Shown one piece after another: positions 2,822 through 5,468 of a DNA stretch of 64,000 nucleotides. The translations under genes and the position numbers were made by a program. Position 1 is the first letter of the stretch. Every line of letters begins with the position of its first letter. The notes below the pieces were generated by a model. It had not been told where the DNA came from. It saw only the letters and a program-made list of their open reading frames with translations, and made no database searches. The stretch comes from Eledone cirrhosa (Eukaryota): assembly GCA_964016885.1 (NCBI GenBank), contig OZ024740.1:402504001-402568000 (forward strand). Direction: 5' to 3'.

Positions 2822-3026
2822 ATAGGAACAAGTAGGATCCCGACGGCTGAGCTCAAGCCGTTTCGACGGCTATTTCTGGACTAAATTAGTCCAGAATTAG
2901 CCGTCGAAACGGCTTGAGCTCAGCCGTAGGGGTCCTACTTGTTCCTATTACCCACTCTACTACCCTAAGTATTGAGTACTTTGGTGCGTTATGGTCCATC
3001 TGGTTCCTTACCACATTTCCTTCGTT
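2822..3026 (+). mobile_element. Fold-back element, family A copy 1, carrying the 3' half of a hammerhead
   Basis: Near-perfect palindrome 2822-2948 plus a unique 3' tail of about 78 bp, flanked by (TA)n. GAAA at 2906 is followed by cggct-tgagctc-agccg-TA. Confidence 0.85.
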
Positions 3027-3059
3027 ATATATATATATATACATATATATATATATATA

Positions 3060-4200
3060 TTCCATGTGACAAAAGAAAAATGGACCCATTTTTATTTTTC
3101 TCTATATTATTCAATTTTTGAGAAAAACTGATGAACGTCAGAAAAATATATATGAGAAAATTTCACTAGGTTTTGGTCTTTTTATGCAGAGTTACATAAA
3201 CATATTGCAGGAATCAATACATATTTTTGGTGCATGGTGACATTTAGTATAACGTCTTTCCAAACAGACGTAGGAATGAGTCTGATCTCTTCCCGGATGT
3301 TTTCTTTTAGTTCAATGGTGGTCCTGAGTTTGTTGACATAAACTCTATCCTTAAGATAGGCCCAAAGAAAGAAAGCTAGGGGGCTTACATGAGAGATGTG
3401 TGGGGCCACTCAAAATCAGTTTTCAAACTGATCTAACGATATCCAAAATTATTTTTTAGCCATTCTTGCAACTCATTCTGGCGAGCTGTGATGGCTTGCT
3501 CCAAATTGCTGGAATTATTCGTTAGAGATGGGTCCATGTACTGTAGATTCCATTTGAAGTATTCCATGGCCTCCATATAACTTTCTTTTGTGACTGTAAT
3601 AGTTACACCATTTTCTCCGAAGAAGAATGGGCTATTCAAACCTCCTCAACAATTCAGTGAGTTTCTTTGTTCTTAGAATTGTTCTTCCCATCTAAATCAA
3701 TATGAGCCTTATCAGAGGTCACAGCAGATTCAGAAAATATGGTTTGTTTTCAATATCCTCCAGCATTTTTACAGCCAAAGTCTTTCATTTGTTTGGTCTG
3801 TATTCTATAGGGACACTCATTAAAATCCTTCTACAAGATTCTGTGGAGAGACACGAGAACTAACATCTGCACTGCGATCGTTTTGTTCTCTGTTCAGCAG
3901 ACTCGTGGACGATGACAATAATTTTGTGTATACGTTCCCTGGGTCATCCAAAATGGGTAGAACGGCCCGTAGACATTGTATTGATGTTCACCACTGTTCC
4001 ATGGGTCTCAAATCTCTTCATCCAGTTTTGTTCCAAAAATGCATGAAATTTCTCCTGGATCTGCTTGTTCGCGCCACACTTATATCAGTGTTTCTCACTG
4101 AAAATACGTTACTATATTCCCAGGCAATGTATAGACTAGGTTCTGTAATTTAGATGAATATACAGCGACACAAAACATGCCCGGAATGACGATGTATATA
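3060..4200 (-). mobile_element. Decayed Tc1/mariner DNA transposon
   Basis: ORF 3182-3409 reads SPLAFFLWAYLKDRVYVNKLRTTIELKENIREEI and ORF 3433-3639 reads PFFFGENGVTITVT, both typical of the catalytic domain. Frameshifted and TA-flanked; ends approximate. Confidence 0.8.
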
Positions 4201-4511
4201 TATATATTTCTGCGTGATCTATGAAATCCCACTTGATGTGGATACAGCGCACAGTACGTCTACTTGGAATAAAACTTCTGAAGTGGAAGCAAGAATCTAC
4301 CTAATTAATTGCCATCTTGCTCCAACTTGGCCACAGATAATTAACAGTGATATTCGTGTGGTACAAGCGTGTGTTATTATACTCCAAGTGTATCTCTTTT
4401 ATAAGCTTTTACTGTCATAAGAAGGGAGTCTTGAGTTTGTCACGCAGTTGTACTGTACTGATGGTGATGGAATCGAAGGATCAAGAGGAGAGTGCAATGA
4501 TCACACTCAAA

Positions 4512-4748
4512 TACACACACACAGACACACAGACACACACACAGACACACACACACAGACACACAGACACACACACATACACACACACACATACACGCAC
4601 ACACACACACACACACACACACACACATACACACACACACACACACACACACACACACACACACACACACACACACACACACACACACACACACATATAT
4701 ATATATATATATATATATATATATATATATATATATATACATATATAT
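4512..4748. repeat. Compound (CA)n-(TA)n microsatellite
   Basis: Direct reading. Representative of many similar tracts, e.g. 7128-7302, 8900-9103, 9935-10520, 35535-35960, 36583-37623, 44538-45024 and 61578-61912. Confidence 0.95.
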
Positions 4749-4799
4749 CAATAATCGCCAATATCTTTCAAATTTATTTATAAAAAAGAGTGGGTGAAG

Positions 4800-4897
4800 A
4801 CGCCATTAAAGTGGACTAAACATGGGTCAGTTGACGGATGAGAAGAGACTGTCCTGTGTTTCGTCCGCCATGTTTTCGTTGTCTTCTACCTCGTTTT
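4800..4897. repeat. Short dispersed repeat, family F
   Basis: gtcctgtgtttcgtccgccat..tt.cgttgtcttc.acctc; inverted copy at 5493-5589 and partial direct copy at 7962-8020; always abuts (TA)n. Confidence 0.75.
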
Positions 4898-4919
4898 ATA
4901 TATATATATATATATATAT

Positions 4920-5116
4920 ATAGGAACAAATAAGACCCCGACGGCTGAGCTCAAGCCGTTTCGACGGCTAATTCTGTACTGAATCAATTAGCCGTCGAAA
5001 CGGCTTGAGCTCAGCCGTCGGGGTCTTATTTGTTCCTATTACCCACTCTACTACCCTAAGTATTGAGTACTTTGGTGCGTTATGGTCCACCTGGTTCCTT
5101 ACCACATTTCCTTCGT
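4920..5116 (+). mobile_element. Fold-back element, family A copy 2
   Basis: Palindrome 4920-5039; GAAA at 4997 then cggct-tgagctc-agccg-TC; same 3' tail as copy 1; (TA)n on both sides. Confidence 0.85.
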
Positions 5117-5261
5117 TATATATATATATATATATATATATATATATATATATATATATATATATGTATATGTATATATATGTATATATATATATATATG
5201 TATATATATATATATATATATATATATATATATATATATATATATATATATATATATATAT

Positions 5262-5468
5262 ATAGGAAAAAGTATGACCCCGACGGCAGAGCTCAAGCCG
5301 TTTCGACGGCTATTTCTGGACTATTTCCCTATTTCCAGAAATAGCCGTCGAAACGGCTTGAACTCTGCCGTCGGGGTCATACTTTTTCCTATTTCCCACT
5401 CTACTACCCTAAGTATTGAGTACTCTGGTGCGTATGATCCATCTGGTTCCTTACCACAATTCCTTTGT
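5262..5468 (+). mobile_element. Fold-back element, family A copy 3
   Basis: Palindrome 5262-5392 with a different spacer, same tail, (TA)n on both sides. Confidence 0.85.

Follow-up and report, generated by a model that had tools for sequence, protein, structure and literature searches.

Palindromic copies of a Hydra-like Penelope element in Eledone cirrhosa: probable double priming on sense RNA and likely traces of ribozyme cleavage in the cell

Short palindromes lying in TA tracts of the Eledone cirrhosa genome are the 5'-truncated ends of a Penelope-like element (PLE) that the motifs of its open reading frame (ORF) place in the Hydra clade. They quite probably form when both ends of a (TA)n target prime cDNA on the sense RNA of the element and the two products are joined head to head. 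The observations behind this reading are the parent element, outer ends at +61 and +139/141 that lie at TAT, inner walls at +1 to -4 and at +42, letters specific to each wall, and covariation between the arms. The evidence also leans towards a broader reading, in which the family would be a genome-wide fossil record of the Penelope cycle. This cycle would comprise double target-primed reverse transcription on sense RNA and a promoter inside hammerhead loop II, with only read-through pLTRs being cleavable. About 150 copies would keep in vivo cleavage to the nucleotide, and a cap-derived C versus a cut-end A would mark the RNA ends.

The window, a stretch of 64,000 nucleotides of contig OZ024740.1, contains three such palindromes (2822-3028, 4920-5119, and 5262-5471; Table 1). 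In each, TA tracts on either side enclose a short inverted arm that is followed, after a variable junction, by a long arm. Element numbering sets +1 at the A of T(T/C)AGTC (window position 2888), a sequence that we take to resemble an initiator. The initial annotation, made from the letters of the window, had described these copies, and they lie where it placed them. They are far beyond chance, with 14,524 near-full palindromes genome-wide and 0 for a reversed-pattern control. As that annotation also stated, the short arms of all three window copies (3/3) stop at the internal CCTAT, element +61, and GAAA, stem III, and an NUH triplet are present. The triplet at the cut site is GTA in copy 1 and GTC in copies 2 and 3. 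The concept of a tail comes from the available text of PMC11167929.

Table 1. Positions of element features in the window, with element numbering
Feature	Position	Strand	Description
Copy 1 short (inverted) arm	2822..2886	-	Element +61 to -4
Copy 1 long arm	2887..3028	+	Element -1 to +141; TAT end at TA tract
Element +1 in copy 1	2888..2888	+	Wall met by both arms; putative capped RNA start inside hammerhead loop II
Copy 1 3' half of type I hammerhead	2898..2932	+	Stem II 3' strand, GAAA, stem III with palindromic loop, NUH, stem I 3' strand; predicted cut after 2928; 5' half only in long copies elsewhere
Copy 1 tail, about 80 nt	2949..3028	+	Spans two putative RT start sites, UAU +59-61 and +139-141; long arm only
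Copy 2 short arm	4920..4984	-	+61 to -4; 11 bases missing from copy 2 long arm
Copy 2 long arm	4986..5119	+	+8 to +141; one extra C at 4985
Copy 3 short arm	5262..5322	-	+61 to +1; different subfamily
Copy 3 junction insert, 11 nt	5323..5333	.	Resembles arm sequence nearby; putative end-joining-type fill-in
Copy 3 long arm	5334..5471	+	+3 to about +141
Older diverged copy, same family	37625..37757	-	82% identity; inverted arm none seen

The family is highly repeated, and a 21-mer of the long-arm tail has 35,058 exact matches in the 3.0-Gb genome (control 0). In uninverted copies, a 3' UTR and a remnant of the endonuclease lie on the upstream side and an ORF on the downstream side. One locus, L130, has an intact ORF of 719 amino acids with reverse transcriptase (RT) and GIY-YIG domains in a unit of 3,551 bp. 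A motif scan of this ORF found YRDD, VIY..YIG, DKT, a CxCX5C linker, and CxxC and CxH around E/N, and no CCHH or GxKF/Y. At residue 37, its N-terminus has RWR where the Hydra clade has RWK. A Pfam search of the 719-residue ORF returned no family; its Atlas neighbours, at 0.96-0.99, are GIY-YIG (31-50% of members) or RVT_1. The element uses Hydra-type (TA)n targets, and both PLE traits are present, pLTRs in partial tandem and an inverted 5'-truncated copy with the tail. The overall architecture is a known PLE trait and the element is a Hydra-like family. The proposal of a hammerhead-bearing retroelement rather than a MITE was correct. The copies were also compared with non-LTR retrozymes, as defined in the available text of bioRxiv 10.64898/2026.07.22.740005. 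That candidate was rejected, since the copies here are dispersed and lack the ribozyme 5' half, in contrast to tandem units that each hold a whole hammerhead. A separate tandem array (L099, G000:C1:14235381-14242996) has a 58-bp period and holds the tail 21-mer; this satellite is likely derived from the tail of the element.

A position-ordered set of 59 copies was made up of 46 inverted copies, 8 without a short arm (one of them, L048, long by eye), and 5 long copies. The short arm starts at exactly +61 in 28 of the 46 inverted copies and within +49..+63 in 44. Junctions were analysed in these 46, in the three window copies, and in 76 further copies picked with a search pattern anchored at +61. 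From this total of 125, 120 were mapped and five dropped (L054 on both strands, L045, L097, and L217). A pseudo-palindrome around +1 made automated arm mapping over-extend, and 17 rows were therefore corrected by hand. At both outer ends, three nucleotides (TAT) match the (TA)n target, in agreement with the TA microhomology that had been proposed. The region +1..+240 has three more UAU sites that seldom serve as outer ends, so homology alone does not choose the priming sites.

The inversion is made anew at each insertion, as first suggested. Seven-site haplotypes match between the two arms of a copy in 51/60 cases, against a shuffle mean of 11.3 and a maximum of 21. The variants shared by both arms had been taken as specific to a copy; they are indeed shared, but most are subfamily haplotypes common to many loci. 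Junctions differ between copies, as noted from the window, and no junction type occurs in more than 4/120. They comprise 51 inserts, 18 blunt joins, and 51 microhomologies. No arm-specific mismatch recurs more than 4 times, and most are C>T/G>A. The axis of the palindrome had been supposed to sit in stem II, but it is not fixed there; it lies anywhere from -4 to +44 in short copies and hundreds to thousands of bases upstream in long ones. At four loci (L012, L057, L187, and L198), the junction has runs of A or T beside the TTT that immediately precedes +1, a pattern expected of RT stutter at a template end.

The first inner wall is at +1. The furthest arm end lies between -4 and +2 in 72/120 copies and, after hand correction, none lies beyond -4. 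The ORF-bearing copies L037 and L134 also start at +1/+2. The parent base at -1 is T or C, so a C that follows the last T of the arm is untemplated. With a pattern allowing C, G, or T, the untemplated letter after +1 is C in 57/65, T in 6, and G in 2. A hand count of the 39 loci with both arms at +1 (78 arm ends) gave C 38, A 16, G 15, and T 9, and 8 of these 39 are zero-loop CG palindromes with an added C on both arms. Reverse transcriptases copy the cap as C. Position +1 is thus probably a capped RNA start inside hammerhead loop II. For LINE-1, an untemplated 5' G is mentioned in the available text of PMC4729875. The absence of the ribozyme 5' half from the palindromes is likely explained by a template RNA that begins within loop II, and not by a cDNA stall. 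L037 (2270-2830) combines a full +139 inverted arm with two sense pieces, one covering +1 to about +365 and the other +1 to +61. Such a copy would arise if RT jumped from the 5' end of one RNA onto another RNA, which would offer a route to partial tandems.

Long copies are predicted to encode a hammerhead of type I. Its stem I is ACCCC/GGGGU and its core (U/C)UGANAA; a long stem-loop II is followed by GAAA, a stem III whose loop is palindromic, and GUC. The predicted cut is after C41, so that the 3' cleavage product would begin with G42. The hammerhead is the minimum-energy fold of copy L130, and across 53 copies forcing this fold costs a median of 2.4 kcal/mol. Stems of 5/6/4 pairs with GUC, GUA, or GUU are kept in 38 of 53 long copies. 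The initial annotation had expected CTGANGA in non-inverted copies; G8 of this canonical core is found in 0/100 listed of 5,383 matches, an absence that the annotation itself had named as evidence against its model. About 70 of these 100 have U3-A8 and about 28 a C3/A8 mismatch, and position 7 varies freely. U3-A8 is a known covariant of PLE hammerheads (PMC4209133, available text). The annotation had also read 'gacggcta' as the 5' strand of stem II. It is the mirror of the 3' strand; the true 5' strand, G[C/A/T]TCGGCTA, is present in uninverted copies, where the loop measures about 40 nt. Rfam found no hammerhead in the window or in the L130 pLTR. At the cut site, the two arms had seemed to differ by C versus A; this was rejected as query bias, C being present in both arms in 96/102 position-ordered copies. 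Self-cleavage of the predicted ribozyme is supported indirectly by copies that end at +42. Single-arm deletions between direct repeats at +12-19 and +35-42 occur at five loci (L010, L013, L050, L188, and L220); they take out the stem III hairpin and are likely due to RT slippage.

The second inner wall is at +42, the predicted cut site. Hand classification of 51 listed loci in which the two arms end somewhere from about +28 to +45 gave 22 with untemplated inserts at +42, 5 blunt and ambiguous joins, 7 of +41-type, 11 loop III palindrome joins, and 6 others. Single-letter inserts at +42 are A or T in 7/7, and most longer inserts are A then T (51 listed loci). Additions of A fit RT run-off from a free end. 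Across the genome, 277 strand matches to the +42/+42 pattern were counted at about 150 loci, a few of which are mutated +41 joins; +40/+40, the one neighbouring position counted as a control, has 0. All 18 of the 18 +42/+42 loci fetched are ordinary insertions with the usual outer ends. By a rough estimate, about 1 locus is expected if the arms are independent, which indicates that the two arms of a copy were mostly templated by RNA of one kind. An arm at +1/+2 is joined to one at +41/+42 in about 16/100 listed loci, so not every insertion uses a single RNA. The roughly 150 copies that end at the predicted ribozyme cut are likely relics of ribozyme activity in the cell.

In the proposed mechanism, the endonuclease likely cuts the (TA)n target on both strands. 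One target strand would prime at UAU +61 and the other at +141, and each cDNA would run toward the RNA 5' end or drop off early. Host end-joining would then fuse the two cDNAs by microhomology, blunt joins, or small inserts. RNA from the promoter inside loop II would be capped, lack the ribozyme 5' half, and give rise to the common palindromes with their additional C. A transcript reading through a downstream pLTR would hold the whole hammerhead. Left uncut, it would give long copies; cut after C41, it would give the rare class in which both arms begin at G42 with an added A.

Two alternatives to double priming concern how the palindrome itself arises. A single cDNA may stall, fold back, copy itself, and rejoin the target, as the initial annotation proposed, with unequal arms produced by later deletion of the centre; this is close to the self-priming idea in the available text of PMC3846280. 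In its favour, the arms are near-identical at birth, with 165 differences in 4,781 paired arm columns of the 120 copies. Microhomology at 51/120 junctions and near-equal arms in the long copies L138, L141, and L033 point the same way. If the cDNA folded back, however, the short arm would have been copied from the long one; in 27/120 copies the short arm has at least 10 bases that the long arm lacks, while the reverse holds in 11/120 (p = 0.014). The 27 include window copy 2 and two ambiguous loci, L062 and L230. Among 15 hand-picked opposite-strand long pairs, the short (+61) arm is longer by at least 100 nt in at least 7, by up to about 2.4 kb; in L147, for example, the +61 arm ends at -2600 and the other at -136. 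The +139 arm is longer in some pairs. Long-copy joints with unequal arms are also found in short-read contigs, although the contigs aligned to window copy 2 did not span it. Fresh palindromes can lose their centre asymmetrically after insertion, which could mimic part of the inequality, so folding back may account for a minority of copies. The 8 perfect zero-loop CG palindromes count against it because a hairpin cannot prime such joints, as do end-of-template additions on both arms and a parent with no stem II partner at the axis. Folding back is largely refuted as the general route and is improbable as an account of the family. Movement of the whole palindromic unit, as a MITE or from a SINE-like master with arms homogenised by conversion, would explain the fixed outer ends, the high copy number, and the recurrence of some simple junction types. 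It is hardly credible, given that long and ORF-bearing copies share the same anatomy and the parent is a retroelement. The inverted part is one-sided, whereas a MITE has terminal inverted repeats at both ends and is moved as a unit by a DNA transposase. The agreement of arm haplotypes, the varied junctions, and the non-recurring mismatches together reject a MITE that moves as a unit and support de novo inversion.

Two further alternatives accept double priming and dispute what the walls mean. The +42 class could reflect an RT stall at the three-way junction, or a cut by a protein nuclease, in place of the ribozyme. The foot of stem III (+40/+39) is 1-2 nt from the cut site and could stall RT nearby; +41-type joins exist, and 7 + 5 of the 51 listed loci are ambiguous joins of this type. 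The +42 class also shows no significant enrichment for haplotypes linked to the intact U3-A8 core (33:17 vs 48:38, p = 0.28), and PLE hammerheads are weak in vitro according to the available text of PMC4209133. Against this, the peak coincides with the predicted scissile bond, joint stops of the two arms at this point greatly exceed the number expected from independent arms, and the A additions suit run-off from a free end; a stall or nuclease is unlikely. The +1 wall, for its part, could be some other fixed RNA end, such as a splice acceptor or processing site, with an RT that prefers to add C. The available text of PMC8557442 does report that PLE pLTRs can carry introns. The same RT, however, adds A/T and not C at +42, the wall falls on the initiator-like sequence, and no second exon was found upstream of +1 in the copies read, which makes this very improbable.

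Double priming on sense RNA can be set beside several known systems, cited here for the portions of text available. Hydra clade EN+ PLEs (PMC8557442) share the single ORF with RT and C-terminal GIY-YIG, the DKT, CxCX5C, CxxC, and CxH motifs, and the lack of CCHH, as well as a hammerhead in the pLTR, (TA)n targets, and the inverted 5'-truncated copy with a tail. The present element differs from them in RWR for RWK, a unit of 3.55 kb versus generally <3 kb, a tail of about 80 nt versus the 30-40 bp described for PLEs there, a non-canonical hammerhead core, and at least 35,000 copies. The Poseidon element PAc of the green anole (PMC11167929) extends both target strands in vitro from two internal RT start sites that bound the tail, downstream of the hammerhead. 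PAc primes without target homology, whereas a TAT match is present at both sites here, and Poseidon is without the linker Zn-finger. The same portion of that paper describes no RNA reads ending at the cut site and cleavage as dispensable; here, genomic copies end there.

Penelope elements of Adineta vaga (PMC3846280) also have head-to-head inverted pLTRs, a palindromic junction, a tail, and an Inr-like sequence in the pLTR. Their palindromes are read in the available text as self-priming on an antisense template, with tests called for, whereas the present data favour double priming on sense RNA. PLE hammerhead variants (PMC4209133) share the type I form, the U3-A8 covariant core, a palindromic loop 3, and opposite-strand pairs; the long loop II with its putative RNA start, the longer helix III, and the C3/A8 subfamily are particular to this family. 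Twin priming of LINE-1 is named in the available text of PMC4729875. In twin priming, the second target strand primes internally, which gives a 5' inversion joined by end-joining, and untemplated G is found at 5' ends. The mechanism proposed for the PLE shares these traits. The pieces of LINE-1 barely overlap, whereas here the two priming sites are fixed and one stretch is present twice in most copies; a minority, with a long arm starting at +58 to +67, are LINE-1-like.

No earlier report of cut-site-terminated or cap-marked PLE copies was found in the literature searched, with subscription papers and supplements outside it. The junction evidence for double priming, for a capped start inside the ribozyme, and for in vivo cleavage is indirect, and it was likewise not found in that literature. 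The formation of PLE head-to-head inverted repeats and the cutting of hammerheads in vivo are stated as open questions in the available text of PMC3846280, PMC8557442, and PMC11167929. Tens of thousands of independent junctions provide a statistical read-out that separates self-priming from double priming. The junctions also locate, with single-base precision, where the RNA likely starts and is likely cut, and an intact ORF is at hand for biochemistry. The same junction analysis can be used on any high-copy PLE.

Other repeats of the window also adjoin TA tracts. Opposite-facing copies of a further repeat (4790-4897 and 5493-5590) flank hammerhead copies 2 and 3; each ends at a TA tract, so copies 2 and 3 are nested between them. 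Another short inverted family adjoins TA tracts at 2660-2795 and 38130-38310, its centres differing. At 9105-9472, arms of 183 nt are 97% complementary with a TA tract at the start, probably a head-to-head element. A second palindromic family is found at 36738-37150, with a mirror of about 36700-37000 near 26900-27000, and also at L023, L034, L082, and L085. Its copies lie in TA tracts and have a short and a long arm, each with an intact hammerhead of canonical CTGATGA...GAAA type, and the axis is about 80 nt upstream of the ribozyme. Its cut site is confounded by A/T microhomology, and it therefore provides no replicate for the cut-site analysis. Finally, an extreme GC skew (about -0.95) extends over about 9 kb at 46000-55500, probably a long simple tandem array.
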